64,000 nt of DNA from Burkholderiales bacterium (GCA_035499005.1 DATJZQ010000158.1:3364-67363), one strand, 5' to 3'. Shown: positions 3,001 to 51,076, numbered from the stretch's first letter. Notes: generated by a model from the sequence alone, not told the origin. Numbers and translations: made by a program.

Positions 3001-3147
3001 GAGCCAGACGAAACTCGTGTGCGCGGCCTGCAGACTGGCCCGCGCGATCAGGAAATAGGCCGCGGCCACAAGCAGCAGCCATCCGGCATCCCTCAGCAGC
3101 GGGCGGTGCGATGCAGGGAGTGCGGTTTCGCCTCGGACAGCGTGCAT
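1..3147 (-). CDS. Membrane-anchored c-di-GMP turnover sensor: MASE1-like polytopic domain + PAS/GAF/PAS modules + GGDEF + start of EAL (C-terminus cut by left window edge)
   Basis: Absent from the ORF track because the frame never closes inside the window. Hand translation of the minus strand from ATG (complement of 3145-3147) reads MHAVRGETALPASHRPLLRDAGWLLLVAAAYFLIARASLQ... with a hydrophobic polytopic N-terminus. It contains ...LSRLGGDEFVV... (complement of ~318-339) and ends ...MYHAKEKGRNNYQFFSPEMNVRAVERHTLETALRVALERQEFTL at position 1 (GGDEF-to-EAL junction). Start, GGDEF motif and end are all in the same frame, and no minus-strand ORF of that frame is listed in 1-3147. The plus-strand 638-aa ORF 52..1968 is its antisense shadow. 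Confidence 0.85.
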   Translation of the reverse strand, partial: MHAVRGETALPASHRPLLRDAGWLLLVAAAYFLIARASLQAAHTSFVWLPAGLGLAALLLGGLRLAPAIAIGAFAVQYGAGASTAVCLLFALGGTLSALTGAWVLQHKLRFSRALEHPRHVLSLICVGAFLSSIIAATCSATGAHWGHLEYWHGWIAAWGTAWGGDALGVLLLTPVLLSWTSGSIRLRFAPRRLLLVLPQLVVGASVFALPSGSGGAYVYLSLALLTAMHLPLAWVTALNLLTFAVAAGATLLGTGPFASAAMQDGLTALQTYGIVSSLATLLLSSLAQERVSVVAEIAEAKRFLDALIDAIPTPVLVKDEHHRYIAANASFCDFFRNPVEQILGKTDYDFFAEQDAAYYQETDDQALSGAVLVEYERPYTIGDDVRWMLVRKSALTRPDGSRVVVLVLIDVTERHAAEERLRASEQRFRSLTELSADWYWEQDAELRFRFFSAGTSGKTITPPEELIGKTRFDLDIEWESPEAREQHRLALAAHLPFRDLVFRDRRSGRYAVVRGEPMFDAQGRFSGYRGTAADITDRRLARQRIARLKDMYAAMSEANGAIVHSRNSEELFGAICRVAVAYVHFVFVSIALIDFKTGLVETVASAGDDKGHAKRFIASTDPGKAEGQGISGHALRSGVNVVCNDVSAEPRTAPWRDVLADLNIRSMATCLLRCQGKVVGTLELYADQTGFFDDELVSLLDKLTMNLSFALDNFQREQARQAAEAALRESETRFRDFAAAAGEYVWEADLEGHLTYVSSRVQSVWGYSDQELIGRVPTDFMPPGEAERVRDWIRHNMRPDGSFNDLDHMIVNRQGETRWILVNAVGILDAAGRRIGQRGTGRDITDRKTAEARISYLATRDPLTELPNRVLFNDRLEQGIVAARRTGQSLALLFVDLDRFKNINDSLGHQVGDLLLKEVASRMQTCIRKGDTLSRLGGDEFVVTLEGLQQAEDAAQVAGKIIKALARPCEVAGHTLNTSCSIGISIFPLDAEDDRALMKNADTAMYHAKEKGRNNYQFFSPEMNVRAVERHTLETALRVALERQEFTL

Positions 3148-3190
3148 CGCGCGGGAAGCGTGGCGGTGCAGGCTAGGCCGATCGGCCCCG

Positions 3191-5005
3191 CTAGACCGCG
3201 CGTCGTTCACCGGAGGCGGGCGGCGCGACCTTCATGACCTCTTCCACCGAGGTCATTCCGGCCACGATCTTCAGTGCACCACTCACGCGCAGCGGCTTCA
3301 TGCCGTCGCGGATCGCCTGGTCGCGCACTTTGTTGAGGTCGGTTTGCGGGCCGATCAAGCCGCGCTGGGAGCGCGTGAGCGTCATCATTTCGTAGATACC
3401 GATGCGTCCCATGTAGCCGGTCATGCGGCACTCCAGGCAGCCCTTGGCCAAGTTCACGCGCCCCGGGAGCGGCACCTGCCACGGATGCGTGAGCGATTTC
3501 CAGCTCTCCTCGTCGACCGTGCCCGGCTCCCTGCAGTGCGGGCACAACGTGCGCACCAGCCGTTGGGCCAGCACGCCGAGCAAAGTCGAGTGCAGCAGGA
3601 ACGGCTCGACGCCGATGTCCAGCAGTCGCGTCACTGCTGAGGGCGCGTCGTTGGTGTGCAGGGTGGACAGCACGAGGTGACCGGTGAGCGCCGCCTGCAC
3701 GGCCATGTCGGCGGTTTCCGTGTCGCGGATCTCGCCCACCATGATGATGTCCGGGTCCTGACGCATCAGCGTACGCACGCCGCTCGCGAAGTCGAGTCCG
3801 ATGCCCGACTGCACCTGCATCTGGTTGAACTGAGGCTCCACCATTTCGATCGGATCCTCGATCGTGCAGACGTTTACGTCGGGGCTGGCGAGCTGCTTGA
3901 GCGTGGAATACAAAGTGGTGGTCTTGCCCGAGCCGGTCGGGCCGGTCACCAGGATCACGCCATGCGGGCGGCCGACGAGCTGGTTCCAGCGCTTCTTGTC
4001 GTCGTCGGAAAAGCCGAGCTCGGTGAAGTCCTTGACCAGGACCTCGGGGTTGAAAATGCGCATCACGAGCTTCTCGCCGAAGGCGGTAGGCATGGTGGAC
4101 AGGCGCAGCTCCACCTCGTCGCCATCTGGGGTGCGCGTCTTGATGCGACCGTCCTGCGGGCGGCGCTTTTCGACCACGTCCATGCGCCCCAGGATTTTGA
4201 TGCGGCTGGTCATCGCACCCAGCACCGGCGTGGGAATCTGGTAGACCTGATGCAGCACGCCGTCGATGCGGAAGCGCACATTGCCCGCTTCGCGCCGCGG
4301 CTCCAGGTGGATGTCGCTCGCGCGCTGGTCGAATGCGTACTGCAGCAGCCAATCCACGATGCTGACGACGTGACGGTCGTTGGCATCCAGCTTGCCGCTC
4401 TGGCCGAGCTGCACCAGCTGCTCGAAATTGGCGATGTCGCTGATGACGCCCTGGCTCTGCTGCGAGGCGCCGTGCACCGAGCGCGCCAGGTTGTAGAACT
4501 CGATCTGGTAGTTGGCGATGTCCTGGGGATTGGCCAGCACGCGCTTGATCGCGAGGCGCAGGATCTGCGCGAGCTCCGTCTCCCATTCGCGCACATAGGG
4601 CTCGGACGTCGCGATCACGACTTCCTTGGCGGTGACCTGCACGGGCAGAATGCGGAAGCGCGCCGCGTAAGCATTGGACATCACCTTGGTCACGGCCGCG
4701 AAGTCGATCTTGAACGGGTCGATGTGCATGTAAGGAAGATCGACCTTGGCGGCGAGCCACTCGCTCAGCGCATCGAGGCTCAGCAGGTGCTTGGGCTTGC
4801 GCGGGTCTTTCCATTTCTGCTCGGCAATGACGATCAGGGGATGAGCATCCCCCTTGCGCAGCGCTTTCGTGGCGAGCAGGGCGTCCGCGGCCTCGCGGGT
4901 GGCGAGCTGATCGGCGACCAGGTCGCGCAGGATCTCATCGAGCGTCAGCCTGCGATCAGGTTGCCGTTGCGGGGCGGCGGCGCGGGCTGTTGTTGGGGCG
5001 GCCAT
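3191..5005 (-). CDS. GspE/PilB-family secretion/pilus ATPase (type II/IV secretion NTPase), orphan
   Basis: ORF 3191..5230. Walker A GPTGSGKTTT, Asp box IIMVGEIRD, His box LSTLHTND, C-terminal CPHC...CLEC tetracysteine, T2SSE_N-like N-domain (DLPYMHIDPFKIDF...FRILPV). Start moved to Met76 (complement of 5003-5005, MAAPTTARAAAPQRQ...) because the upstream 75 codons are Arg/Ser/Pro-rich and unlike the family. Confidence 0.9.
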   Translation of the reverse strand: MAAPTTARAAAPQRQPDRRLTLDEILRDLVADQLATREAADALLATKALRKGDAHPLIVIAEQKWKDPRKPKHLLSLDALSEWLAAKVDLPYMHIDPFKIDFAAVTKVMSNAYAARFRILPVQVTAKEVVIATSEPYVREWETELAQILRLAIKRVLANPQDIANYQIEFYNLARSVHGASQQSQGVISDIANFEQLVQLGQSGKLDANDRHVVSIVDWLLQYAFDQRASDIHLEPRREAGNVRFRIDGVLHQVYQIPTPVLGAMTSRIKILGRMDVVEKRRPQDGRIKTRTPDGDEVELRLSTMPTAFGEKLVMRIFNPEVLVKDFTELGFSDDDKKRWNQLVGRPHGVILVTGPTGSGKTTTLYSTLKQLASPDVNVCTIEDPIEMVEPQFNQMQVQSGIGLDFASGVRTLMRQDPDIIMVGEIRDTETADMAVQAALTGHLVLSTLHTNDAPSAVTRLLDIGVEPFLLHSTLLGVLAQRLVRTLCPHCREPGTVDEESWKSLTHPWQVPLPGRVNLAKGCLECRMTGYMGRIGIYEMMTLTRSQRGLIGPQTDLNKVRDQAIRDGMKPLRVSGALKIVAGMTSVEEVMKVAPPASGERRAV

Positions 5006-8884: not shown

Positions 8885-9370
8885 TCATCGGTGCTCGGGG
8901 AGAATGCGCTGAAGCAAGGCGACCAGCGTCTCGCGCTCCGCGGCAGTCAGATTGCTGACCAGGCGCTTCTCATGGCGCGCGACCCGCTGTTTCAGCCTCT
9001 TCAAAAGTGCCGTGCCGGCGGCCGTCAGCGAAATACCGTTCACACGGCGATCCTCGACTGAGGCGCGGCGCGCCACCAGCCCGCGCGCCTCGAGCTTGTC
9101 CAGCGCCGGCACCAGGCTGGAGCGGTCGAGGCGGGCCGCGTTTGCCAGCTCGGTCTGCTTCAGGCCCGGATTGGCTTCGATGATGACCAGCATGCCGAAC
9201 AGGCCCGGGCTCATATCGAGCTCACCCATCGCCGCGGCGAAATCGTCGAAGATGGCGCGCTGCGCCAGGCGCAGATGGTAGCCGAGCAAACCCGGCAGCA
9301 GGCCGAGCTTGGCGCCCCCGGCGGCAGAGGCCGCGAGCGGACGAGCTTTGCGCCTAGGCGTTTCCGACAT
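8885..9370 (-). CDS. MarR-family transcriptional regulator
   Basis: ORF 161 aa. Winged-helix pattern typical of MarR (LKQTELANAARLDRSSLVPALDKLEARGLVARRASVEDRRVNGISLTAAG). Divergent from the catabolic operon starting at 9477. Confidence 0.85.
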   Translation of the reverse strand: MSETPRRKARPLAASAAGGAKLGLLPGLLGYHLRLAQRAIFDDFAAAMGELDMSPGLFGMLVIIEANPGLKQTELANAARLDRSSLVPALDKLEARGLVARRASVEDRRVNGISLTAAGTALLKRLKQRVARHEKRLVSNLTAAERETLVALLQRILPEHR

Positions 9371-9476: not shown

Positions 9477-10535
9477 ATGACTTGGACCATCACCCTGGCC
9501 GGCGATCCGCAGAGCGCACCAGCGGAGGATGGCGAAACCGTGCTGGACGCGCTGCTGCGCCACGGCGTAGGGTTCGCTTACAGCTGCCAGTCGGGCAACT
9601 GCGGCACCTGCAAGTGCGAATACGTCGCGGGCGACATCCTGGAGCTCGAGTACTCGGAGCATGCGCTGTCAGCGGCCGAGCGCAGCCGCGGTGTGATCCT
9701 CGCCTGCCGGACGCAGGTGTGGGGCGACGTCGAGATCCGCCGCCTCACGGCCGAGGACTTCGTGATGCATCCCTCGCGAGTGATGCAATGCAGGGTGGCG
9801 GAGATGAGCTTCGCAACGCACGATGTGCTGCGGCTGCGGCTCGCGATCGAGTCGGGCGGTCCTTACACGTTTTCCGCCGGACAGTTCGCCAAGCTCGAGT
9901 TCGGCTTCGCCCCGAATGTCCCGCGCGACTATTCAATGGCCAATCGGCCGGACGATGCGATGCTGGAGTTTCACATCCGCTGCATGGCCGGCGGGGTGAG
10001 CAGCCATCTTCCGGCGCAGCTCAGGGTGGGCGATCCGGTGCGCGTCTCAGGTCCGTTCGGCACGTCGTATCTGCGCGAACAGCACCCCGGACCGCTGATC
10101 GCCGTCGCGGGCGGCACCGGCCTCGCCCCGATCCGCTCCATCATCGCCGCCGCGCTCGCCAAGGGTATGGTGCAGCCGCTTCACCTCTACTTCGGCGTGC
10201 GCGCAGAGCGCGACGTGTATGGCGAGGCGGAATTGCGCGCATGGCAGGCCCAGCATCCGCAGCTGAAAGCGCACGTGGTGCTGTCCGATCAGCCGCAGCC
10301 CGGTGACGTGCACGAGACCGCCGCCACTCCGGCGCGGCGCTACGGCCTGGTGACGGACGCTGTGCGCGGTGATTTCGCCAGCTTTGCCGGGTTTCAGGCC
10401 TATCTCGCCGGGCCGCCGGCGATGGTGGACGCCGCCACGGAGCTGCTGCGCGCGGGCGGGATTGCGGCGCGCGACATCCACGCGGACGCCTTCTACAGAG
10501 CCATCGACCAGACAGCGTCGGGGGCGGTGGCATGA
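9477..10535 (+). CDS. Ferredoxin-NAD(P)H oxidoreductase: N-terminal plant-type [2Fe-2S] + FNR-like FAD/NAD domains (oxygenase reductase component)
   Basis: ORF 352 aa. CQSGNCGTCKC...ILACR cluster motif, RDYSMAN flavin motif, AVAGGTGLAPIRS NAD(P)-binding motif. Domain order as in NagAa/phenol-hydroxylase-type reductases, opposite to PaaE. Confidence 0.88.
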   Translation: MTWTITLAGDPQSAPAEDGETVLDALLRHGVGFAYSCQSGNCGTCKCEYVAGDILELEYSEHALSAAERSRGVILACRTQVWGDVEIRRLTAEDFVMHPSRVMQCRVAEMSFATHDVLRLRLAIESGGPYTFSAGQFAKLEFGFAPNVPRDYSMANRPDDAMLEFHIRCMAGGVSSHLPAQLRVGDPVRVSGPFGTSYLREQHPGPLIAVAGGTGLAPIRSIIAAALAKGMVQPLHLYFGVRAERDVYGEAELRAWQAQHPQLKAHVVLSDQPQPGDVHETAATPARRYGLVTDAVRGDFASFAGFQAYLAGPPAMVDAATELLRAGGIAARDIHADAFYRAIDQTASGAVA

Positions 10536-11464
10536 GCCGTCCGTTCAGCCTCGAAGGGCAAGTCGCTATCGTGAGCGGGGGCGCGCGCGGCATCGGCTAC
10601 GCCGTCGCGCAAGAGCTGCTCCGGCTCGGCGCGCGCGTGACACTCGTCGATCCGGGCGTCTCGATAGCAGGCGAGGAGGCCGATGCCGACAGCGTGCAAA
10701 CTGCCGCTGCCGCCCTGGGGGCCAACGCGTTGGCTGTGCCTGAAGACATCGCCGCGCCGGGAGCGGCGCAGACGGCGGTGCAGCTGACGCTCGAGCGCTT
10801 CGGCGCGCTGGACATCGTGATCAACAATGCGGCCATTCTGCGCGACGGCTTCATCTTCAAGTCGCAGCGCAGCGATTGGGAGCGCGTCATCCAGACCAAC
10901 CTCACCGGCGCGTGGGCCTTGCTCGCCGCAGCGACGCCGGTCCTGCGCGATGCAGTGAAGAGCGGCCGCGCGCCAGGGCGGATCGTCAACATGACTTCGA
11001 CCGCTGGACTGTACGGCAACTACGCTCAGTCAGCTTATGCGGCGGCAAAGGCGGGTCTGGTCGGGCTCACACGCGCTGTAGCGCTGGACATGGCGCGCTC
11101 CAAGGTGAACTGCAACGCCGTTGCGCCGTTTGCCGCCACGCGCGTGACCGAGTCCATCGCGCCGGCCAACCCGGCGCAACAGGCATACAAGGAGCGCGCG
11201 CTGAAAATCCCGGCCGGCCATGCCGCGCGCCTGGTCGGGTGGCTCTGCTCGCCGGGCTGCGATGTCACCGGCCAGATCTTCGGAGTGCGCGGGCGCGAGG
11301 TGTTTCTGTTTTCCCAGCCGCGGCCCGCAGTACGCGTGCTGACCGCGCCATTGGCGGACCTGACGCCGGAGTCACTTGACGCCGCCATCAGCATCGCGGT
11401 GCAGGATCAGCTGGTCGAGCTCACCTCCGACCTCGAAGCATTCGACAGCGAACCCATCCTCTAG
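10532..11464 (+). CDS. SDR-family oxidoreductase (hydroxyacyl-CoA-dehydrogenase-like, with C-terminal extension)
   Basis: ORF 310 aa. VSGGARGIG cofactor motif, NNAAI, catalytic S...YAAAK. ATGA start/stop overlap with the reductase gene. Confidence 0.85.
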   Translation: MSRPFSLEGQVAIVSGGARGIGYAVAQELLRLGARVTLVDPGVSIAGEEADADSVQTAAAALGANALAVPEDIAAPGAAQTAVQLTLERFGALDIVINNAAILRDGFIFKSQRSDWERVIQTNLTGAWALLAAATPVLRDAVKSGRAPGRIVNMTSTAGLYGNYAQSAYAAAKAGLVGLTRAVALDMARSKVNCNAVAPFAATRVTESIAPANPAQQAYKERALKIPAGHAARLVGWLCSPGCDVTGQIFGVRGREVFLFSQPRPAVRVLTAPLADLTPESLDAAISIAVQDQLVELTSDLEAFDSEPIL

Positions 11465-11466
11465 CT

Positions 11467-12195
11467 ATGGAGCGCAAGATGTCCACCACGGAAGCCACGC
11501 AAATCCAGATCCCCGAGGTGAAGACGGCGGCCGAGCTGGCCCAGCAGCCGGAGGAGTATCGCACCGCCGTGCAGAAGATCGTCATCAGCCACGCGGTCAA
11601 CGAGCTGTACGGCGCGCAGGTGTTCGACGAGCCGGCCATCAAGCTCGCACCGACTCCCTACGCCAAGTGGCTGACCTGCCGGGTGGCGATGGAGGAGTAT
11701 CATCATCACGTCCGCTTCAAGGCCTTGGCGGACGAGATCGGCGTCGAGCCGGAGCGCATGGATCCGCAGCACAAGCGCCCGCTGTCGATTTTCAGCTTCG
11801 CGCTCAGGACCTGGCCGGAATTCTGCGTGATCAAAGCCATCGCGGACTATGCCGAGATCCTGCAGGTGGAGGATCTGCTCCACTGCAGCTTCCATCCGCT
11901 GCGCAATCTGGCACGCATTACCATGCCGGAGGAGAAGTTCCACGCCAAGTTCGGCAAGGACTTCTGCCTGGACTTGATCCAGCGCGGCAGCGCCGCCGAG
12001 GTCCAGGACGCCATCGACCGCTACTTCCCGATCACGCCCGGTTTTTTCGGAGGCAGCCAGTCCAAGAACAACGAGATCTACCGCAAGTGGAAACTGAAGC
12101 AGCGCAGCAACGAGGAAATGCGGCAGGATTTCCTGACCCGCGTTACCGAGCTGGTTGAACGCGACTTCGGCTTGAAGCTCCCCGCGGTGAACTGA
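11467..12195 (+). CDS. Ferritin-like di-iron oxygenase subunit, PaaA-like (phenylacetyl-CoA epoxidase catalytic-subunit family), minimal 242-aa form
   Basis: ORF 242 aa. E...ExxH...D/E...ExxH ligand pattern visible (NELYG, MEEYHHH, ADYAE, PEEKFH). Block-wise resemblance to E. coli PaaA as I recall it (YRKTLIRQIGQHAHSEIVG / QDEAGH / KEESFHQRQG / DAINRFWWP). Start 2 nt after the SDR stop. Confidence 0.7.
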
Positions 12196-12227
12196 GCTGG
12201 AGCCGATTTGAACGACAGGAGGAGAAC

Positions 12228-13268
12228 ATGACACGAGCGGCCACGGACATCCGCGTGGAGCGCGACGCCTACTATCAGCGCATCGCGCAGGCTAATCTGA
12301 CGCCGCTGTGGGAGGTGATGTCCGCGCTGGTGCCTGAGCAGCCGCGCTCCCCGTGTGTGCCGGCCATCTGGCGCTATCAACAGGTGCGCCCCTGGCTGAT
12401 GGAATCGGGCCGGCTGATCTCGGCCAAGGAAGCCGTTCGGCGCGTGCTGATCCTGAAGAATCCCGGCCTGTCAGGCGCCTCGGCGATCACTCAGTCGCTC
12501 TTTGCCGGACTGCAGCTGATCTTGCCGGGCGAAGTTGCTCCCAGCCACCGCCACACGCAGTCGGCGCTGCGCTTGATCGTCGAAGGCAGTGGCGCGTTCA
12601 CCGCGGTCGAAGGCGAGCGCATCACGATGCACCCGGGCGATTTCATCATCACACCGGCATGGACCTGGCACGACCACGGCAATCCCGGCAGCGAGCCCGT
12701 GGTCTGGCTGGACGGCCTGGACATTCCGCTCGTGCGCTTTCTGGAGGCGGGTTTCCAGGAAAACTATCCGCAGGACTCGCAGCCGGTGGCGCGCCCTGAG
12801 GGCGATGCGCTGGCACGCTACGGCGCCAATCTGCTGCCGGTCGACTACCGGCCGCGCGGTCTTGCATCGCCCGTCTTCGCCTACCCCTATGGGCGGACGC
12901 GCGAGACGCTGGAGCAGCTGCGCTGCAACGGGAAGCCGCATGCGGTGCACGGCTACAAGATGCAGTTCATCAACCCGGCGAGCGGTAGTTACCCGATGCC
13001 CAGCATCGGCGCGTTCGTGCAGCTTCTGCCGGCAGGTTTTCGCGGCGGCGCCTGCCGCTGCACGGACGGGACCGTGTTCCACTGCATCGAGGGTGGGGGC
13101 AGCGTGAGCGTCGGCAGCGAGCGCCTCACGTTCTCTGCACGCGATACGTTCGTGGTTCCCGCGTGGTGTACCCATCGACTCGACGCCGACGGCGAGACGG
13201 TGCTGTTCAGCTTCTCAGATCGCCCGGTGCAGCAGGCGCTCGGACTGTGGCGCGAGGAGCTGAGCTGA
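12228..13268 (+). CDS. Gentisate 1,2-dioxygenase (bicupin)
   Basis: ORF 346 aa. Hallmark block [69 protein letters not shown] upstream. Confidence 0.92.
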
Positions 13269-13319
13269 AGAATTCGCGCCGTTGCAGTTTCCCAACCTTT
13301 TTCCTGGAACCCAGCACCG

Positions 13320-14012
13320 ATGACAAACGCCTTCGTCGTTGACGCGCACCAAACGCCGTCGGTTCCCGTTGCCGGCCAAAAAGGCCGCTTCCCGGTGCAT
13401 CGCATCTACTGCGTCGGGCGCAACTACGCCGCGCACGCGCGCGAGATGGGGAAGGACCCCGAGCGTGAGCCGCCGTTCTTTTTCCTGAAGCCCGCCGACG
13501 CAGTGGTCCCCGAAGGCGGCGAGGTCCACTACCCGCCGGGCACTTCCAACCTGCATCACGAGATCGAACTGGTGGTTGCGCTGCACCGCGGCGGGTTCCA
13601 GATTCCCGCGGCGCGGGCGCTGGACCACGTCTACGGCTACGCGGTCGGCTTGGACATGACGCGCCGGGACCTGCAGTTCCAGGCGCGCGACATGGGACGT
13701 CCATGGGATTTCGGCAAGGCCTTCGACGAGTCGGCGCCGATCACCACCATCTACCCCGTTGCCAGCCACGGGCATCATTTGGCGGGCGCCATTACGCTCT
13801 CGGTCAACGGCGAGCTGCGTCAGCAGGGCGACTTGAAGGACATGATCTGGAACGTTCCGGACACGCTGGCGTTTCTGTCCAATTACTACCGCCTCCAGGC
13901 TGGTGACTTGATCTTCACCGGAACGCCTGCGGGGGTGGGTGCTGTGGTGCGCGGGGACAAGCTGGTGGGCAAGGTCGAGGGTCTCGCCGAGCTCCACGTC
14001 ACCATCATCTGA
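13320..14012 (+). CDS. FAH-family hydrolase, probable fumarylpyruvate hydrolase
   Basis: ORF 230 aa. FAH C-terminal fold motifs (CVGRNYAAHAREMG, HHEIELVVAL, DLIFTGTPAGVG). Sits downstream of gentisate dioxygenase. Confidence 0.85.
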   Translation: MTNAFVVDAHQTPSVPVAGQKGRFPVHRIYCVGRNYAAHAREMGKDPEREPPFFFLKPADAVVPEGGEVHYPPGTSNLHHEIELVVALHRGGFQIPAARALDHVYGYAVGLDMTRRDLQFQARDMGRPWDFGKAFDESAPITTIYPVASHGHHLAGAITLSVNGELRQQGDLKDMIWNVPDTLAFLSNYYRLQAGDLIFTGTPAGVGAVVRGDKLVGKVEGLAELHVTII

Positions 14013-14021
14013 ATCGGCGTC

Positions 14022-14924
14022 GTGGACGCGCGCAAGACCTGGCTCGAAGTCGCGCTCAACGGTCCGTGGGGCCGCGCACGCCAGCCAGGGATCCCGGTGA
14101 GCGTGCGGGACATCGTGGACCAGGCCGCAGCGTGCGTGCGTGCCGGGGCGGCGATCGTGCACGTGCACGCCTACGACGAGTCGAGCGGCGCACCGCGGGA
14201 AAGCGCGGCCGCCTACGCCGCCATCATCGAGGGCATCCGGCGACATGTGGACGCGATCGTCTATCCGACCGTGTCAATTCCCGGCATGGCACACTCGCCC
14301 GTGGACGAAACGCCGCCGCAGCGCTTCGCGGTGCACGAGGAGCTCGCGCAACGCGGCCTGCTGGAGTGGGCGGCGGTCGACCCTGGTTCGCTCAACATCG
14401 CCTCGTACGATGATCTGCGCCAGGACCGCGATGGATTCGTGTACCGCAATCCCGAGCAACATCTGCGCTACGCGCTCGGCCTTGCGGCTCGTTATCGTTT
14501 TCATCCAAGCTACGCGATCTACGAGCCGGGCTTTCTGCGGCTGGGGGCGTCGTTGCACTGGCGCTGCGCCTGTCCGGCTCCCATCTACCGCTTCATGTTT
14601 TCCACGGACTACACCTTTGGGTTCCCCGCCGATGACTACGGTCTCACGGCCTATCTCAAGCTCATGGACCAGGTGGCGCCGGGCGCCAGGTGGATGGTGG
14701 CCGGTCTGGGCGTCGACATCCGGCAACTCGTGCCGCGCGCGGTAGCGGAGGGCGGACACGTCCGCGTGGGTCTGGAGGACGCGTCGCTCGGTTGCGCCCA
14801 GACGAACGTCGAACTGGTGGAGGCGGCCGCTCGCATGATCAATGCCTGTGGCGGCGAGCTGGCGACTGCGGTCGAGGTGCGCGCCGAGCTGCGCGCGGCG
14901 GAGAGGGGCGAGGCGCAGCTATAA
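14022..14924 (+). CDS. Beta-keto acid cleavage enzyme (BKACE / 3-keto-5-aminohexanoate cleavage enzyme family, DUF849)
   Basis: ORF 300 aa, GTG start. Family-like N-terminus WLEVALNG and HVHAYD, VRVGLED blocks as I recall for Kce-type TIM barrels. Confidence 0.75.
   Translation: MDARKTWLEVALNGPWGRARQPGIPVSVRDIVDQAAACVRAGAAIVHVHAYDESSGAPRESAAAYAAIIEGIRRHVDAIVYPTVSIPGMAHSPVDETPPQRFAVHEELAQRGLLEWAAVDPGSLNIASYDDLRQDRDGFVYRNPEQHLRYALGLAARYRFHPSYAIYEPGFLRLGASLHWRCACPAPIYRFMFSTDYTFGFPADDYGLTAYLKLMDQVAPGARWMVAGLGVDIRQLVPRAVAEGGHVRVGLEDASLGCAQTNVELVEAAARMINACGGELATAVEVRAELRAAERGEAQL
14919..14924 (+). promoter_or_regulatory. Perfect TATAAT hexamer 29 nt upstream of the pdxA-family start (candidate -10 box; overlaps BKACE stop codon)
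   Basis: Exact hexamer read in sequence. No convincing -35. Confidence 0.25.
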
Positions 14925-14952
14925 TCGCAGCGATCAGCGATCGGCAAACTTC

Positions 14953-15954
14953 ATGACCTCACCACCCAGAATCGGCATCACGATGGGCGACCCCTCCGGA
15001 GTCGGGCCCGAGATCATCGTCAAGGCGCTGGCGGAGATGTCGCCTGAGCAGCGTTCTGCGTCGGCGGTAGTCGGTGATCTCGATTTCCTCAAGCGCGCAG
15101 AACGCTTGGTGGGTGCGGGCCTCACGTATGCTGAGGCGCCTGAGAGCGCGCGCAACGGCGTCGTTCCGGTGTTCCATGTGCCCAGTCGCGGCTCCGGTCA
15201 GATCCGTGACGGCGAGATCACTGCGGCGGGCGGCGAGGCGGCTTACCAATACGTGGTGAAGGCGGTGGAGCTGGCCCTGGCCGGGACGATCGGGGTGATC
15301 GTCACGGCGCCACTGAACAAAGGTGCGATGCATGCGGCCGGCCACCATTTCGACGGTCACACAGAGCTGCTTGCGCATCTGACCGGCGCCAAGTCGTCCT
15401 TCATGCTGCTCGCGTCGAGCAAGATGTCGGTGGTACACGTATCGACTCACGTCAGCCTGCGGACCGCGACCCAGCGCGCGACGACTGAGCGCGTGCTTGC
15501 CACCATCCGCGCTGGCAGCGACCATTTCAACGCACTCGGCTACGCGCACCCGCGCATCGCCGTGGCCGGACTGAACCCGCATTGCGGCGAAGGCGGCATC
15601 TTCGGCAACGAAGAGATCGACCACATCAATCATGCGGTCGAGCTCGCGCGCCAGCAGGGCATGGACGTCAAGGGCCCGATTTCCGGCGACACCGTGTTCT
15701 ACCGCGCGCTCAAGGGCGAATTCGATCTGGTGGTTGCGCAGTACCACGACCAGGGTCACATCCCGAGCAAGCTCATCGCCTTCGACGAAACCGTGAATGT
15801 CAGCCTCGGACTCCCCATCCGGCGCACGTCGGTCGATCACGGCACCGCATTCGACATCGCGTGGAAAGGCAAAGCCAACCACGTCAACATGCGCGCCGCC
15901 GTGGCTTATGCGCGCATGATGGCCGAGCGCCTGCCCGCGAGCGCGGTGGCCTGA
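14953..15954 (+). CDS. PdxA-family NAD-dependent 4-phospho-hydroxyacid dehydrogenase (PdxA2-like)
   Basis: ORF 14842..15954 trimmed to ATG 14953 (MTSPPRIGITMGDPSGVGPEI...). Family blocks TAPLNK, GHTELLA, HVSTHVSL, AGLNPHCGEGG, YHDQGHIP, RTSVDHGTAFD. Confidence 0.88.
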   Translation: MTSPPRIGITMGDPSGVGPEIIVKALAEMSPEQRSASAVVGDLDFLKRAERLVGAGLTYAEAPESARNGVVPVFHVPSRGSGQIRDGEITAAGGEAAYQYVVKAVELALAGTIGVIVTAPLNKGAMHAAGHHFDGHTELLAHLTGAKSSFMLLASSKMSVVHVSTHVSLRTATQRATTERVLATIRAGSDHFNALGYAHPRIAVAGLNPHCGEGGIFGNEEIDHINHAVELARQQGMDVKGPISGDTVFYRALKGEFDLVVAQYHDQGHIPSKLIAFDETVNVSLGLPIRRTSVDHGTAFDIAWKGKANHVNMRAAVAYARMMAERLPASAVA

Positions 15955-15972
15955 CGGCTGTCGGCCGGCGCG

Positions 15973-17169
15973 ATGGCGGCTGTTCCACGACTCACCATCG
16001 TCGCGGACGATCTCACCGGAGCGATGGATGCCGCCGCGCCGCTCGCGGAGCGCGGCCTGGCGACATGGGTCGTAGCCGACGCCGAGCGCAACGCGTCGCA
16101 GACGCTTCCACCGGCACAGGTGGTGTCCATCAACGCGGCGAGTCGGCATCTACCCAAAGAAGATGCCGCCCAGCGCGTGCGCGCGTTGTCATCCAGGTTG
16201 CTCGATCCCGGCTGCGAGATCCTGATCAAAAAGATCGATTCGACGCTGCGCGGCAACGCGGTGGCGGAAACCCTGGCCCTGTTGGAGGCGAGCGGGCGCG
16301 CCGCGGCGGTCGTGGCGCCTGCGTTTCCGCGACAGGGGCGCACGCTCGTCGCGGGTGTGGTGCACGTCCACGGCGTGCCCCTTGCGCATACCGAGCTCGC
16401 ACGCGATACGCTGTCGCCCCCGCCGGCCGAGCCGTTGCACCTGCTGTTCCGCTCCGCGGCTCCGCAAGACGAAGTGCGTCTGGTCGCACGAGGCGCATCC
16501 GTCGCTTTGTCGCGAGTCGGCCGACGGCAGATCCTCGTGGTCGACGCTGCCAGCGACGACGACCTGCGCAGTACGGTGCGTTCGCTGAGCAGCCAGTTGA
16601 GCGACACCTTGCTGGTGGGCTCGGCGGGGATTTCGGAGGCTGTGGCGCACACTTGCTTCGAGGCGCCCCGGGAGGCACTCGCCGCGCCCGCGGTTAGAGA
16701 GCAAATGGTGTTTGTGGTCGGTTCGCGCACGGAGCAAAGCGCGCAACAGGTGCGCGCACTGATCGAGTCCGGCCGGGCGAGGCTGATCGCTGCACCGGCG
16801 GGCTGCGTAGATCTCTCCGCTGCGCTGGGTGCGCCCGAAGCGCTGCTCGTGATCAAGGCGGAGCCCGGCAGCGGGGCAGACCACACGGATGCCGCGGAGG
16901 TTGCCTGTCGTCTGGCGGACGCGGCGGGGACGCTGATCGAGCGCCAACCGATCGCGGCCCTGGTCGTGACGGGCGGCGACACAGCCTTCGCTGTGCTGCG
17001 GCGTCTGGGCCAGACTACAGTGCAGGTGATGGGTAACCTGCTGCCCGGAATCCCGTTCAGCCGTATTCGATTCGGCATGCGGGAGCTGTGGCTTGTGACG
17101 AAAGCGGGCGGGTTTGGCGCGCGAGACACGTTGGCGACCATCGCGCAGCGGTTGCACGGCGCAGCCTGA
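15973..17169 (+). CDS. Four-carbon acid-sugar kinase family protein (DUF1537; threonate/erythronate/3-oxo-tetronate kinase-like)
   Basis: ORF 398 aa. N-terminal IVADDLTGAMD and KIDSTLRGN blocks and C-terminal VTGGDTA...KAGGFG block typical of DUF1537. Adjacent to its usual PdxA2 partner. Confidence 0.82.
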   Translation: MAAVPRLTIVADDLTGAMDAAAPLAERGLATWVVADAERNASQTLPPAQVVSINAASRHLPKEDAAQRVRALSSRLLDPGCEILIKKIDSTLRGNAVAETLALLEASGRAAAVVAPAFPRQGRTLVAGVVHVHGVPLAHTELARDTLSPPPAEPLHLLFRSAAPQDEVRLVARGASVALSRVGRRQILVVDAASDDDLRSTVRSLSSQLSDTLLVGSAGISEAVAHTCFEAPREALAAPAVREQMVFVVGSRTEQSAQQVRALIESGRARLIAAPAGCVDLSAALGAPEALLVIKAEPGSGADHTDAAEVACRLADAAGTLIERQPIAALVVTGGDTAFAVLRRLGQTTVQVMGNLLPGIPFSRIRFGMRELWLVTKAGGFGARDTLATIAQRLHGAA

Positions 17170-17273
17170 GAACCTCAACGGCCGAAACGGTCTCCAACCG
17201 ACACGACAACCCGTCGGAAGATAGCGGCGACCATGTGTCGGAACCAGCGCAGCTCGCGTGACCCTGCGCAGGC

Positions 17274-17870
17274 ATGACGTGGCGGGAGAGCGAAGGCGTG
17301 AGCGCAAACCGTTGGCACCACTTGCTGGCCCGCGTGGCCGCGGTCGCGATCGTGCTCGCAACGGCCGATGCCGCGTGCGAAGATCGAGTCAGCGTCGAGG
17401 CGCACCGCGAGGGCGAAGCGGTGATTGTCGAAGCGCGCGCCGCGCTGCACGTGGATCTGGCAATCGCGTGGGAGGTGCTCACCGGCTACGACCGGTACCC
17501 GCAGTTCATCCCCGATCTCACCTCCAGCCGCGTGTTGAGCCGCTCGGGCAGCGACGTGGTCGTCGAGCAGAAAGGGCAGCTCGCATTCCTGGTATTTCGC
17601 CTCCCGCTGGAGGTGACTATGAACGTCAGCGAGCGGCCCCGCACCGGCATCAGCTCGCGCGCGATCGGGGGCACTTTTCGGGAGATGACCGGGAGCTACG
17701 AGCTGGCGCAGGCGGGCGAAGACTTGCAGCTCACTTACAGCGGCCGCATGGTGCCGCGCTTCGGGTTGCTCTCGCTCATGGGGACCGCAGCCGTGAAGGC
17801 CGCCGTCGAAAAGCAGTTCGGTGCCCTGGTGCGGGAGATGCAGATCCGCGCTGCCGTGCCGGAAAAGTAA
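17274..17870 (+). CDS. SRPBCC-superfamily (polyketide cyclase/dehydrase-like) protein with N-terminal signal/anchor
   Basis: ORF 198 aa. YDRYPQFIPDL motif characteristic of this fold family. Hydrophobic N-terminal segment LLARVAAVAIVLATADAA. Confidence 0.65.
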   Translation: MTWRESEGVSANRWHHLLARVAAVAIVLATADAACEDRVSVEAHREGEAVIVEARAALHVDLAIAWEVLTGYDRYPQFIPDLTSSRVLSRSGSDVVVEQKGQLAFLVFRLPLEVTMNVSERPRTGISSRAIGGTFREMTGSYELAQAGEDLQLTYSGRMVPRFGLLSLMGTAAVKAAVEKQFGALVREMQIRAAVPEK

Positions 17871-17984
17871 GCCCCGCACTCGAACGTATTGACGGATGCG
17901 TAGTGCCTGGACCCTCAGGCGGCCCGGGGATAGCACATCGGTAGAATGGGCAATTCGCCCCCGTTTCGCACCAGAAGGCCTGGC

Positions 17985-19403
17985 ATGACGTCCGTTCCAT
18001 CTGCGTTCTTGCACCCTGCGAGCGTCGCTTTGGTCGGTGCGGGCGATCGGCTCACGAGCTCCGGAGGAGCCGTGCTGCGCAACCTGGAGCGTTCCGGGTT
18101 TCGAGGCCGCGTCGTCCCCGTGAACCCGAAGGGTGGTCAGCTGTTCGGGCTGCCAGTGGCGCGCTCGCTTGCCGCCGTGTCGCCGCCCTGTGAGCTCACG
18201 GTGATCGTGGTTCGACCGGACGCGATCATGGACGTTGCCCGCGAAGCGGCCGCGAGCGGACACCGCAATCTGCTGATCCTGCCCGGTGGATTCGCCGAAG
18301 GCGGTCAAGAGGCCAAGGCGCGCGACCGTGAGCTGCGCGCGTTGTCTGTGGAGCACGAGCTCATAGTTGGCGGGCCGAACTGCGCCGGGACCATCAACCT
18401 GCTCGATGCGTCAGCGCCGTTCGCCGCCACCTTTCTGCGCGATCTGCCGCGCGGAGGCGGTGTGGCGCTGGTGTCGCAGTCGGGCGCTATCGCGGAGGAG
18501 GTGATCGCCTCCAGCCACCGCCTCGGTATCCCGCTCGGCGCGGTGATTTCGGTGGGCAATGCCATGCACCTCGGGTTGACCGAATACCTCGACGAGCTCG
18601 GTGCGGATTCTGCCTGCAGAGCTATCCTGCTGTACGCGGAATCGTTCGGCGATGTACCGCAGTTTCGCGATATCGCGCGGCGCGTCAGCATGCGCAAACC
18701 GGTCGTCGCGCTGGTAGGCGGGCGCACCGCGCCCGGTCGCCGCGCCGCGTTTCGGCACACCGGCTCCCAGGCGCCCGCCAGCGACGAAGCCGACGCTTTC
18801 TGCGCGGAATGCGGCATGGTGAGGGCAACCAATCTGCGTCGGCTCATGCTCGCTGGAAAAGCATTCGGCGTCCATCCGGGCGGCATCGGGCGGCGCGTAT
18901 TGGTGCTATCCAACTCGGGGGGCCCGGGCGTGCTGTGCACCGATCAGACGGCGCTCGAAGGCCTGGAGCTCCCGGATCTGCCTGCGGCGCTCGCTACCCG
19001 ACTGCGCGGCTCACTTCCGCCGGAAGCGGCCGTGGCCAATCCGCTCGATCTGCTCGCGGACGCGCGCGACGACCGGTTCGCAGACACACTGACGGCCGTG
19101 CTGGAGCACGGTGCAAGCTTCGATGCCATATTGATGATCCACGTCGTTCCCTTCATGGTCGATGGCGGTGCGGTCGTCAGCCGGCTCGCCGCGCTATGCC
19201 GCGGCGCCGCCCTTCCGGTCCTGCACACGATGATGGGCACGCTGGAGCACAGGGCGGAATGGATGGCGGCGATGGAGGCGGCCGGTGTGCCGATGTTCGA
19301 CAGCGCGGAGGACATGGCCGAGGCAGCGGGGCTCCTCGCGCGCTACCGCGCCTTGCGAGACGACCTGAAGGCAGACGTGTCGCGGTCGGGTGAAGCACAG
19401 TGA
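17985..19403 (+). CDS. CoA-binding, ADP-forming acyl-CoA synthetase alpha-like protein (no ATP-grasp domain)
   Basis: ORF 17946..19403. Start placed at second Met (MTSVPSAFLHPASVALVGAG...). CoA-binding Rossmann block VPVNPKG, succinyl-CoA-ligase-like GPNCAGTINL and SQSGA blocks, then a third flavodoxin-like domain (VLSNSGGPGVL). No ATP-grasp signature seen. Confidence 0.75.
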   Translation: MTSVPSAFLHPASVALVGAGDRLTSSGGAVLRNLERSGFRGRVVPVNPKGGQLFGLPVARSLAAVSPPCELTVIVVRPDAIMDVAREAAASGHRNLLILPGGFAEGGQEAKARDRELRALSVEHELIVGGPNCAGTINLLDASAPFAATFLRDLPRGGGVALVSQSGAIAEEVIASSHRLGIPLGAVISVGNAMHLGLTEYLDELGADSACRAILLYAESFGDVPQFRDIARRVSMRKPVVALVGGRTAPGRRAAFRHTGSQAPASDEADAFCAECGMVRATNLRRLMLAGKAFGVHPGGIGRRVLVLSNSGGPGVLCTDQTALEGLELPDLPAALATRLRGSLPPEAAVANPLDLLADARDDRFADTLTAVLEHGASFDAILMIHVVPFMVDGGAVVSRLAALCRGAALPVLHTMMGTLEHRAEWMAAMEAAGVPMFDSAEDMAEAAGLLARYRALRDDLKADVSRSGEAQ

Positions 19404-19429
19404 GATCGAGCGCAGCGGAGGAGATGAAG

Positions 19430-20074
19430 ATGAGACTGTTCGGTTATTGGCGCAGCTCTGCGGCTTACCGGGTGCGCATCGCGCTCGCGCTCAAAGGGCT
19501 CACGTACGAGCACGTGGGCGTCCATCTGGCACGAGGCGAACAGCACCTGCCCGATTTTGCAGCCGTCAATCCGCAGCAGCTGGTACCTGCGTTGCAGGAC
19601 GGTGAGCATCTGCTGTTTCAGTCCCTCGCCATCATCGAGTACCTGGAGGAAACACACCCGCAGCCGCGGCTGTTGCCGACCGATGCGGCCGAGCGCGCCC
19701 GGGTGCGCTCGCTCGCGCAGATCGTGGCCTGCGAGATTCATCCTCTGAACAATCTCAGAGTCCTCAGCTACCTCACCGGCCAGCTCGCCGTTTCCGAGGA
19801 GCAGAAATTGACCTGGTACCGGCATTGGGTGACGACCGGGTTCGCCGCGTTCGAGGAGCGCCTGGGGCGCGAACCGTGGACCGGCCGCTTCTGCCACCGC
19901 GACGCGCCGGGGTTGGCCGACATTGCGCTGGCGCCGCAGATTGCTAATGCCCGGCGCTTCAAGGTTGATTTGACGCCCTTCCCGGTCATTCGCCGCATCA
20001 CCGACGAGTGCATGAAACTCGAGGCGTTTCAGAAGGCGGCGCCAGAGCACCAGCCGGATGCGGACAGGAGCTAG
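19430..20074 (+). CDS. maiA: Maleylpyruvate/maleylacetoacetate isomerase (GST zeta class)
   Basis: ORF 19400..20074 trimmed to ATG 19430, 6 nt after GGAGGAG. MRLFGYWRSSAAYRVRIALALKGL...VNPQQLVPAL...QSLAIIEYLEETHP are zeta-GST hallmarks. Confidence 0.88.
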   Translation: MRLFGYWRSSAAYRVRIALALKGLTYEHVGVHLARGEQHLPDFAAVNPQQLVPALQDGEHLLFQSLAIIEYLEETHPQPRLLPTDAAERARVRSLAQIVACEIHPLNNLRVLSYLTGQLAVSEEQKLTWYRHWVTTGFAAFEERLGREPWTGRFCHRDAPGLADIALAPQIANARRFKVDLTPFPVIRRITDECMKLEAFQKAAPEHQPDADRS

Positions 20075-20270
20075 CCGTGACCGTCCGGTGGCACCAGCGC
20101 GCCCCTTGGCAATTCCGATCGCGGTACAGGGACCGCGCTTTCTTTGTGGGTGCGGGCTAGCATAGAATCCAATTCGGTCCGAGGCACTGCTGCTGGCGAA
20201 ATAGCGGCGGCAGTACCCGCCTCGTCGGTTGCAACGCAAAACTGTGAAATCCTTTCCCGAAGGAATGTGT

Positions 20271-49267: not shown

Positions 49268-51076
49268 ATGATTGGTCAAGTGCTGCGGACGCTCCTGGCG
49301 CTGCTGCTGGTAGGCGTGCTCGCCTACCTGTACGTGATGAGTCAGGGGGGCGACCTCAAGCGTCAGACTCAGATCGTCACCGATCTTCGCAGCCTCAAGG
49401 AGATCGACAGCCGCTGGAACCGAGATCTCGCCACTGCACGCAGCGACACATTGGCTACCGAGCCTCGCTCGCGCGAACCGGCGGTCAGGCTGCAGCCTTT
49501 GCTGGGCGATATCGCGGTAGAAACGGCTGCCCTCAACAATCGCGCCCTGGCTACCGGGGTCGAGAGCCTGCGCAGTGCGTTCCTGGAAAAGCAGAAGCGC
49601 GTCGACCAGTTCGAGCAGGCAAACGCTGATCTGCGCGCGGCGGTCAAGGATCTGCTGAATCAGCTGTCTGGCGTTCGCCAGACGGTCGCCCGATTGGCAG
49701 AGGCCGATGCCAAGCAGCGGCAGAAGCTGTCGGCCCTGGACGGGCAGCTGGTGGCGTTGAACGCCGAGCTTTTGCGCCTCTATGTACAACCGGACGACGG
49801 TGCGCGAAAGGCGGTCGAAACGGCCGCCAGCACCCTCGCTGAAGCGGCGCCGCAATACCCCGAAGCCATCCGTACTCCGCTCTCGGGCCTGGTCCCCGCC
49901 GTTGGCGCGCTGCTTAAGCAAGAGCCCGCAGTCACGCAGCTTGGCGAGCAAATCGCGTTGCTGCCCACCTCCCCGCGCATCACATCTCTCAACGACGCCT
50001 ACGATCGAGAGTTCCAGGCCATCGCCGATCAGAAGGAACAGTTTCGCGTCTATCTGGTGTTCTATTCCGCGGCTCTGCTGGTTTTCCTGGCCTATGTCGT
50101 GTACCAGTTGCGCCAGAGCTACGGCAAGATCAACCAGGCCAACGAGGCCCTGAAGGCGGCCAACGAGAATCTCGAGCACAAGGTGCAGGATCGGACGAAG
50201 GAGCTGTCCGAGGCGCTCAAGCACCTGAAGGAATCGGAGCTGATGCTGGTCCAGTCCGAGAAGATGTCTTCGCTCGGTCAGATGGTGGCCGGCATCGCCC
50301 ACGAGATCAACACGCCGCTCGCGTATGTGAAAGCCAGTCTAGCCTCGGTCAAGGAGAGGCTGCCCCAAGTCGAGGGCGTGGTGGCCGAGTGCACGAAACT
50401 GTTAGCCATGCTCGAGCGCGGCGACGTGCCGGATGCGGAGCTTTCGGCGCAATTCACCCGCGTGTCCACGCTGTCCTCCAAGTTCCGCGCCGAATCCGAG
50501 GCTGGCGATCTGCTCCATCTCACCAGCGATGGGCTGCACGGCATCGACCAGATCGCGGAGATCGTCATCAACCTGAAGAACTTCAGCCGCCTGGACCGCA
50601 GCAAGCTGCAGCGCTTCAACCTCAACGAAGGCATCGAGAGCACGTTGGTGATCGCCCGCAACATGATCAAGCACAAGACGGTGCACAAGCAGCTGCGGGA
50701 GATTCCGCTGGTGGAATGCTCGCCATCGCAGATCAATCAGGTGTTCCTCAACCTCGTGACCAATGCAGCACAGGCGACGGATGAGACATCCGGCGAGATC
50801 ACCGTTGCCAGTGCCATCGCCCCAGGCGGACAAGTGCGGGTGGACGTTTCGGACAACGGTCACGGTATTCCCGAGGCTATCCTGTCCAAAATCTTCGACC
50901 CGTTCTTCACGACCAAAGATGTGGGGCAGGGCACCGGGCTTGGCCTGTCCATCGCCTATAAGATCGTCCAGGAGCACGGCGGCCGCATCGAGGTCAAGTC
51001 GAGTGTGGGTCGCGGCACGACCTTCTCGGTATTCCTCCCGGTGAAGGCAGCGCAGCCGCAGGCGCTCGCGGCATGA
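49268..51076 (+). CDS. Sensor histidine kinase (TM - ~240-aa helical extracytoplasmic domain - TM - coiled coil - HisKA - HATPase_c)
   Basis: ORF 602 aa. TM1 [17 protein letters not shown]2 [22 protein letters not shown]-box [13 protein letters not shown] box [11 protein letters not shown] boxes DNGHGIP and GTGLGLS. Confidence 0.9.

Follow-up and report, generated by a model that had tools for sequence, protein, structure and literature searches.

Adjacent genes for a DUF1537 kinase and a PdxA2-type dehydrogenase are known from D-threonate catabolism, where they encode DtnK and D-threonate 4-phosphate dehydrogenase, and from the recycling of 4-hydroxythreonine. Proteins of the DUF849 family are known as beta-keto acid cleavage enzymes (BKACE), such as Kce, PdKce (BKACE15) and BsfD, and also include the cis-epoxysuccinate hydrolase CESH[D] (PDB 5zmu). 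The lower pathway of gentisate degradation is encoded by gtdA-FAH-maiA gene sets of the nagIKL type, as on plasmid pXWY of Pseudomonas sp. XWY-1. All of these families are already known, as are the gentisate lower pathway and the pairing of the kinase with PdxA2. Here, a 64,000-nt stretch of DNA from a Burkholderiales bacterium (GCA_035499005.1 DATJZQ010000158.1:3364-67363; the whole stretch is referred to as the window) was analyzed. At positions 14022-17169, a trio of genes encoding a DUF849 protein, a PdxA2-type dehydrogenase and a DUF1537 kinase was found within a gentisate-type operon, next to the gene of an FAH-family hydrolase. In related genomes FAH, DUF849 and PdxA, usually with DUF1537, formed an invariant core, which was retained where gentisate-related genes had been deleted.

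Compared with the pXWY gene set, the gentisate 1,2-dioxygenase (GDO), FAH hydrolase and zeta-class glutathione S-transferase (GST) of the window were 59%, 59% and 49% identical, respectively, and stood in the same order. Thus, the gentisate lower pathway is really present, and all three of its enzymes are encoded in one unit. However, five genes (the trio, an SRPBCC gene and the alpha part of a CoA ligase) were inserted between the FAH hydrolase and the GST isomerase, the regulator was of the MarR rather than the LysR family, and a PaaA-like oxygenase set was found upstream in place of a flavin or Rieske hydroxylase. As in the DtnK/PdxA2 systems, the kinase and dehydrogenase families were adjacent and co-oriented, but PdxA preceded the kinase, the pair was wedged among FAH, DUF849 and gentisate genes, and a transporter was absent. 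The locus also resembled the oxidative deoxyribonate pathway, in which a short-chain dehydrogenase (SDR) and a BKACE lead to glyceryl-CoA, since an SDR and a DUF849 protein were again encoded in one operon with acid-sugar-type enzymes. The BKACE of that pathway is canonical and uses acetyl-CoA, whereas the DUF849 protein of the window had no catalytic base and the SDR was dispensable for retention of the trio. The literature search linked none of BKACE, PdxA and DUF1537 together, in agreement with an earlier note on this DNA, which was aware of no described BKACE partnership with this pair. The search likewise found no description of a stable tie between the kinase/PdxA2 pair and FAH plus a non-BKACE DUF849 protein, of the insertion of such a module in a gentisate operon, or of streamlined genomes in which FAH-DUF849-PdxA remains as a minimal unit.

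The open reading frames (ORFs) and Pfam matches agreed with the arrangement first noticed, namely three consecutive plus-strand genes, adjacent to FAH and within a gentisate-type operon, with gaps of 28 nt (14925-14952) and 18 nt (15955-15972). The DUF849 ("BKACE-like") gene, predicted to encode a non-canonical zinc TIM-barrel enzyme, lies at 14022-14924 (GTG start, 300 aa; PF05853, E = 6.5e-57). The gene at 14953-15954 encodes a predicted PdxA2-type NAD-dependent oxidative decarboxylase (ATG start, 333 aa; PF04166, E = 3.2e-98), and that at 15973-17169 a protein of the DUF1537 four-carbon acid-sugar kinase family (398 aa), in which both the sugar-binding SBD_N (4.2e-43) and the nucleotide-binding NBD_C (6.1e-17) domains are present. 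The PdxA start at 14953 is internal to a longer ORF (14842-15954). It was supported by the alignment to PdxA2 structures, which ran from residue 6 and included the "RIGITMGDP" strand; a later start would truncate this conserved first strand. The window has a G+C content of approximately 65%, and the G+C content at third codon positions (GC3) of the trio frames was 0.79-0.82, as for coding sequence. Long antisense ORFs were ruled out by GC3 as high-GC artefacts. Comparison with three orthologous loci gave dN/dS values of 0.13-0.16 for DUF849, 0.05-0.09 for PdxA and 0.22-0.33 for DUF1537. All 12 genes were under purifying selection (0.03-0.33); the values were lowest in PdxA and FAH (FAH, 0.05-0.09) and highest in DUF1537.

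The exact window proteins were met only in metagenome assemblies and in metagenome-assembled genomes (MAGs) named Burkholderiales bacterium. About 100 related loci keep the arrangement, all from one uncultured Burkholderiales clade, and such recurrence of the same gene order is far beyond chance. A scan with one genome per species returned 80 loci; FAH lay directly upstream of DUF849 in 72 of them, with DUF849 identities of 58-96%, and nearly all of these 72 loci had the gene order of the window. Presence at the locus was counted in 72 species-representative genomes, leaving aside loci whose contigs were too short to judge. FAH was present in 67/67, PdxA in 65/66, DUF1537 in 57/61, GDO in 49/64 and GST in 30/40. 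A further scan, with the PaaA-like gene as its anchor, found DUF849 in 31 of 33 loci, PdxA in 28 of 29 and DUF1537 in all 18. The operon arrangement is old and vertically inherited at a fixed site of the core chromosome, and the word "island" used in the earlier note was therefore abandoned. On one side the operon is flanked by genes for a type II secretion system-type ATPase, a Nudix protein, cytochrome c, a pyrroloquinoline quinone (PQQ) dehydrogenase and ArfB, and on the other by those for GNAT, FemAB-like, P-II, TrxB, FtsK, LolA and RarA proteins, with MutS and SufB further out. A mobile island was ruled out by these housekeeping flanks, which are syntenic across the clade.

The distinction between core and accessory genes came from deletions in place, which were judged between the common flanks, with PQQ dehydrogenase and ArfB at one end and FemAB-like at the other. 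Independent deletions of GDO, the PaaA-like/SDR/reductase genes, the CoA-ligase part and GST had occurred in several lineages, with the core retained. In loci L029 and L023 the reductase, SDR, PaaA-like and GDO genes were gone, and FAH-DUF849-PdxA-DUF1537-CoA ligase-GST was kept. The four-gene core stood alone in L047 and was accompanied by GST in L049; it also stood alone in L055 and L058, on whose contigs the flank genes were not detected. The upper genes were partially lost in L033 and L036, and GDO alone was lost in L032. In marine MAGs with 44-45% G+C (L059, L060, L063, L065, L070 and L071), FAH-DUF849-PdxA lay between the PQQ dehydrogenase and FemAB-like genes, tightly packed with gaps of 22 nt and 14 nt; L060 and L065 also carried a DUF1537 kinase, 32% identical. 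At least five independent deletions ended exactly at FAH. In a single-gene neighbor-joining tree of DUF849, rooted with eight homologues without the partners, the reduced lineages were scattered in several places among full-operon lineages. The simplest history is that the ancestor had the full operon and that gentisate-related genes were repeatedly lost while the core was kept, the loss calls being limited in part by contig ends.

Since the core persists without GDO, PaaA-like and SDR genes, the trio is independent of locally encoded gentisate cleavage. A place for the trio within the upper, gentisate-forming pathway was ruled out for the same deletions, and these also weakened the earlier proposal that the trio acts on a product of BKACE and SDR steps. 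The other earlier proposal, that two unrelated modules had been fused in one operon, agrees better with the deletions, which are best explained by a separable module attached to the gentisate genes. The FAH hydrolase, which had been overlooked in this connection, belongs with the trio. As a separate observation, a gene for a 447-aa GHL15-like protein (putative glycosyl hydrolase) lies between DUF849 and PdxA in L068 (10972-12315), and the spacing in L043, L073, L075 and L169 points to a similar insertion.

The DUF849 protein of the window shares the TIM barrel, the His-His-Glu ligands, the Tyr and the "HVRVGLED" motif with canonical BKACE (Kce, PdKce/BKACE15 and BsfD), but identity is only 24-25%, the motif PSYAIYE replaces PELExF(D), and there is an additional "VDPGSxNIxxYDD" loop. 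In the alignment with BsfD (9zsc), P162-S-Y-A-I-Y-E168 of the window fell on P161-E-L-E-L-F-D167. PdKce E171 has been proposed as the catalytic base (PMC11961710), and BsfD F166 has been equated with Tyr173 of PdKce and Tyr145 of CcaKce (PMC12871164). Accordingly, BsfD E164 is the equivalent of PdKce E171, and the catalytic Glu (CcaKce E143, PdKce E171, BsfD E164) is replaced by A165 in the window. At this position 68 of 71 orthologues had Ala and three had Gly, and all eight outgroup homologues had Ala. The zinc-ligand positions H47 and H49 (HxH) and E252 (GLED) were conserved in 68-69 of the 71 orthologues, and Y167 (the conserved BKACE Tyr, Y145/Y173), E168, R248 and D253 were invariant. 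The first gene had been described as a BKACE condensing its substrate with acetyl-CoA; these substitutions speak against that assignment. Judged by its sequence, the protein is a member of a non-canonical, Glu-less DUF849 branch, for which acetyl-CoA-dependent cleavage should not be assumed. The branch corresponds to the Glu-less DUF849 proteins of the G7 group, which were labelled non-BKACE by the curators of the family, who detected no keto-acid activity (10.1101/2023.02.15.528638).

An AlphaFold model of the protein (pLDDT 81, pTM 0.86) had a (beta/alpha)8 fold, for which CESH[D] and Kce were the best and equally good matches (Foldseek TM 0.77-0.79). CESH[D] was also an equal-best sequence match. 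The BKACE Glu is absent from both CESH[D] and the window protein, and both contain "VDxGSxNI..YDD" with the catalytic Asp115 of CESH[D], which corresponds to D120 of the window. In CESH[D], catalysis has been ascribed to D115 and E190, with R11 as proton donor and E14 as third metal ligand (PMC6429283). In the window protein, however, A11, G14 and F193 stand in place of R11, E14 and E190, and the Kce-type Glu ligand is kept where CESH[D] has Gly. An exhaustive search of 1.8 billion representatives gave 1,620 DUF849 relatives, 75 of them at E <= 1e-30. In full-length relatives down to approximately 31% identity, the base position was mostly occupied by Ala, Gly or Ser, with "YEPGF" next to it on the C-terminal side; the window protein thus falls in a small subfamily inside a larger Ala/Gly/Ser branch that includes CESH[D]. 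Outgroup neighborhoods (those of L077-L084, of plasmids of cultured bacteria and of other clades) contained tripartite ATP-independent periplasmic (TRAP) transporters, patatin, an MR_MLE dehydratase with a major facilitator superfamily transporter, GST and glycolytic genes, and were dropped as a clue to the substrate because they were too heterogeneous. On plasmid p2 of Cupriavidus pinatubonensis HN-2 (L086, 450870-471712), a DUF849 homologue with 46% identity lay in a partly decayed region with tpiA, gpmA, an Asp/Glu-racemase-family gene, glycerate kinase, pyk and eno, a context that hints at an involvement in the metabolism of small acids or acid sugars.

The PdxA protein matched structures of PdxA2/D-threonate-4-phosphate dehydrogenases with 292 (2hi1), 278 (6e85) and 278 bits, at approximately 45-50% identity and with the motifs kept, compared with approximately 176 bits for E. 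coli PdxA and 151 bits for the terephthalate dihydrodiol dehydrogenase TphB. It passed the generic TIGR00557 pdxA model (350 bits, cut-off 290) and failed the equivalog models NF002891 for D-threonate 4-phosphate dehydrogenase (318 vs 583) and PRK01909 (238 vs 476). In the alignment to 2hi1 and 6e85, H136, H166, H210, H265 and D266 lay in conserved motifs, and the RTSVDHGTAFDIAW motif was conserved. By the E. coli numbering, H166, H210 and H265 are putative zinc ligands. H136 corresponds to a substrate-contacting PdxA residue (PMC10471632). By these comparisons the protein is clearly PdxA2-like, and its requirement for a phosphate ester is putative.

The DUF1537 kinase matched PDB 4xfr (3.5e-28), but its scores were under the cut-off of each of three subgroups (DtnK 198 vs 450, OtnK 111 vs 350, OiaK 35 vs 700). 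The subgroup match suggested earlier as a check therefore gave none, and on its scores the protein is a divergent DUF1537 kinase, nearest to D-threonate kinase and assignable to no characterised subgroup. Its nearest plasmid relatives in cultured bacteria were at most 37% identical and lay next to PdxA in an amino-acid-type context. By analogy, the kinase and PdxA look like the known unit that phosphorylates and then oxidatively decarboxylates. The absence of the usual companions of the acid-sugar route, remarked on in the earlier note, was confirmed for the operon, which had no LtnD-, DenD-, OtnI- or OtnC-type partners or transporter. As an argument from absence it is weak, because the D-threonate route, as Zhang et al. 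are said to have described in 2016, reportedly needs the kinase and PdxA2 only.

We tentatively prefer the explanation that the core is a self-standing module in which a small hydroxy acid is phosphorylated and oxidatively decarboxylated, with an additional CoA-independent step by the DUF849 protein. From the gene content, conservation, loss pattern and active-site substitutions observed above, we infer the following substrate, product and order of steps. The DUF1537 kinase would phosphorylate a small hydroxy acid, probably one of four carbons, at its terminal hydroxyl, and PdxA2 would oxidise the beta-hydroxyl of this acid and decarboxylate it to a compound at the triose-phosphate level, such as dihydroxyacetone phosphate. 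The DUF849 protein would depend on zinc and not on CoA and would work as a hydrolase, hydratase, isomerase or decarboxylase on a hydroxy- or keto-carboxylate that chelates metal; acetyl-CoA-dependent cleavage of beta-keto acids would not be its reaction. It would probably partner the FAH-family enzyme, which may cleave or decarboxylate 2,4-dioxo or beta-keto acids and, in species with the full operon, could double as the fumarylpyruvate hydrolase of the gentisate route. That FAH, the non-BKACE DUF849 protein, PdxA2 and DUF1537 form an undescribed four-enzyme pathway, with a new CoA-independent DUF849 reaction type and wired to aromatic catabolism in this abundant soil lineage, is a further and doubtful claim. 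If true, the four enzymes might serve, for example, the phosphate-dependent disposal of a C4 fragment from or beside gentisate ring cleavage.

Several observations weigh against the module as proposed. The kinase is absent in three marine species (L059, L063 and L070), where DUF849 and PdxA are retained. In L097 (Ga0335082_10006902, 2552-4234), DUF849 has been cleanly deleted and PdxA and the kinase are kept; the FAH stop at 3241 is followed after 57 nt by the PdxA start at 3299, and the remaining operon genes are intact. DUF849 ligand and catalytic positions are replaced in one subclade with L067, L073 and L075 (H47Q, H49T/N, E252A and D120V), and two marine species (L063 and L071) have E252Q, which suggests decay or changed function of DUF849 in these five loci. 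FAH and PdxA are the only core genes never lost, apart from L010 (9311-17538) and L109, in which DUF849 is followed by a frameshifted amidase, an AAA ATPase, a hydrolase and PEP-CTERM proteins, with no PdxA; these two loci possibly reflect a rearrangement or an assembly chimera and were excluded from the evidence. The losses within the core argue against a rigid, linear four-step pathway, since an obligatory one does not predict them. Furthermore, the co-occurrence comes from a single clade with syntenic flanks, so that conservation of order is partly common descent, and the other clades of this DUF849 subfamily had no link to FAH, PdxA or DUF1537. The losses were scored at the locus, and in species without GDO there a gentisate dioxygenase may be encoded at another site of the genome. 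Finally, no transporter gene was found in the operon.

Because of the losses within the core, two other explanations stay alive. PdxA2 and DUF1537 may constitute an ordinary D-threonate/D-erythronate or 4-hydroxythreonine-recycling route, with DUF849 and FAH as unrelated genes that travel with them by descent. The closeness of this PdxA to PdxA2, the loci that retain PdxA and the kinase with DUF849 missing or decayed, the DUF849 clades without these partners and the equally syntenic flanking genes all fit such a juxtaposition, and kinase-PdxA pairs stand alone in many contexts, such as rhizobial plasmids with amino-acid-type neighbors. However, FAH and DUF849 stay packed with PdxA in streamlined marine genomes of 44% G+C, where all the rest was shed, in three species the kinase too, five or more deletions halt exactly at FAH, and DUF849 is under clear purifying selection. 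We regard the juxtaposition as possible, if on balance unlikely. In a role related to pyridoxal 5'-phosphate, PdxA2 would be the lineage's 4-phosphohydroxythreonine dehydrogenase, or one of them, and the kinase a 4-hydroxythreonine salvage enzyme; PdxA2 would therefore never be lost. Its presence in 65 of 66 loci with dN/dS values among the lowest, its score above the TIGR00557 cut-off and its persistence without the kinase in marine MAGs are in line with this, and PdxA2 is able to catalyse the PdxA reaction, DUF1537/PdxA2 having been linked to recycling of toxic intermediates (PMC9997740). This role is nevertheless rather improbable, as the protein is far under the specific PdxA equivalog cut-offs, PRK01909 being an example, and no function is left for FAH or DUF849.

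The remaining two explanations assign DUF849 a defined reaction. In one, which we consider very unlikely, the CESH-like DUF849 protein belongs to a C4-dicarboxylate branch: FAH would hydrolyse maleylpyruvate, DUF849 would hydrate maleate or open a related cis-dicarboxylate, and the PdxA-family enzyme would oxidatively decarboxylate the hydroxy-diacid. A glutathione-independent route from maleylpyruvate through maleate to D-malate operates in Pseudomonas. DUF849 homologues adjoin TRAP DctPQM transporters, a dicarboxylate symporter and an Asp/Glu-racemase-family gene, and the protein has the motif around the catalytic Asp of cis-epoxysuccinate hydrolase, an enzyme that acts on the epoxide of maleate (PMC6429283). 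Yet the other CESH residues (R11, E14 and E190) are not conserved, PdxA is PdxA2-like with the kinase nearly always next to it, the operon's GST isomerase would yield fumarate rather than maleate, and the core is kept where the locus has no GDO. Equally unlikely is the variant first proposed, in which the SDR would make a beta-keto acid and BKACE would cleave it with acetyl-CoA to give a hydroxy acid, which would then be phosphorylated and oxidatively decarboxylated. The full operon does include an SDR, and pairs of SDR and BKACE are known, as in the oxidative deoxyribonate pathway (10.1101/205583), but the catalytic Glu of DUF849 is absent in all orthologues, many lineages with the trio have lost the SDR gene, and a BKACE yields an acyl-CoA instead of the free acid on which a DUF1537 kinase would act.

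The trio is part of one 11-gene plus-strand transcription unit (9477-20074), as predicted from tight or overlapping junctions and a terminator-like site behind GST. The unit begins with a Fer2-FAD-NAD reductase of the BenC/MmoC type (9477-10535; Pfam Fer2, FAD_binding_6 and NAD_binding_1), which scored 175 bits against NCBIfam BenC, under the cut-off. The gene for the 310-aa SDR (10532-11464; Pfam adh_short, 2.5e-41) overlaps the reductase stop by 4 nt and is followed by that for a 242-aa PaaA-like di-iron oxygenase subunit (11467-12195; PF05138, 1.5e-21; PDB PaaA 4iit, 2.2e-15). The latter is the most conserved protein of the operon, with 75-94% identity across the clade. Together, the genes at 9477-12195 presumably encode the gentisate-supplying step. 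The PaaA-like protein is accompanied by the reductase and SDR and has no PaaB/C/D partners, and a paralogous SDR-PaaA-GDO set, roughly 50% identical, occurs in L018 (84-2900). GDO (12228-13268) scored 537.8 bits against TIGR02272 (cut-off 442) and precedes the FAH-family hydrolase of the fumarylpyruvate-hydrolase type (13320-14012; PF01557, 9.8e-53).

Downstream of the trio lies a gene for an SRPBCC/polyketide-cyclase-fold protein (17274-17870; Pfam Polyketide_cyc, 2.5e-11), which is patchily distributed and restricted to a subclade; the protein has a hydrophobic, signal-like N-terminus, yet it is encoded within a cytoplasmic catabolic operon. The next gene encodes the alpha part of an ADP-forming acyl-CoA synthetase (17946-19403; Succ_CoA_lig, 8.7e-38, CoA_binding_2 and Ligase_CoA_2), whose start may be at 18072, as metagenome copies were called at 443 aa. 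It contains the CoA-binding and phosphohistidine domains, and no ATP-grasp partner was found in the operon. In the GDO-less loci L023 and L029 this part was kept together with GST. The unit ends with the zeta-class GST of the maleylpyruvate/maleylacetoacetate isomerase (MaiA) type (19400-20074; TIGR01262, 290.7 bits, cut-off 171). A terminator-like hairpin with a T-run lies at 20120-20137 on the plus strand, 46 nt past the GST stop; the other plus-strand site of this kind in the operon span (13461-13478) is within the FAH coding sequence. Since such sites were no commoner overall than in shuffled sequences, the hairpin is weak evidence. No sigma-70 consensus promoter was found in the promoter scan. 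The gene for the MarR-family regulator (8885-9370, minus strand; Pfam MarR, 2.5e-13) is divergent from the operon and was kept at the same position in most full-length loci. Elsewhere in the window, 51108-53024 encodes a protein in which a Ser/Thr protein kinase domain is, unusually, fused to response-regulator receiver domains, and it adjoins a gene for a DAHL-domain histidine kinase (49268-51076).

The module is a tractable target for the discovery of enzyme function and not a categorically new system. Annotations such as "BKACE" and "3-keto-5-aminohexanoate cleavage protein" are spreading to proteins that are incapable of that chemistry as described. Here, a Glu-less DUF849 subfamily has a stable and strongly selected partnership with a kinase and a dehydrogenase of known chemistry, which offers a handle on its reaction. 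The carriers are widespread uncultured Burkholderiales of soil, freshwater and marine environments, and a conserved pathway in them would bear on how these bacteria use small organic acids and aromatics.

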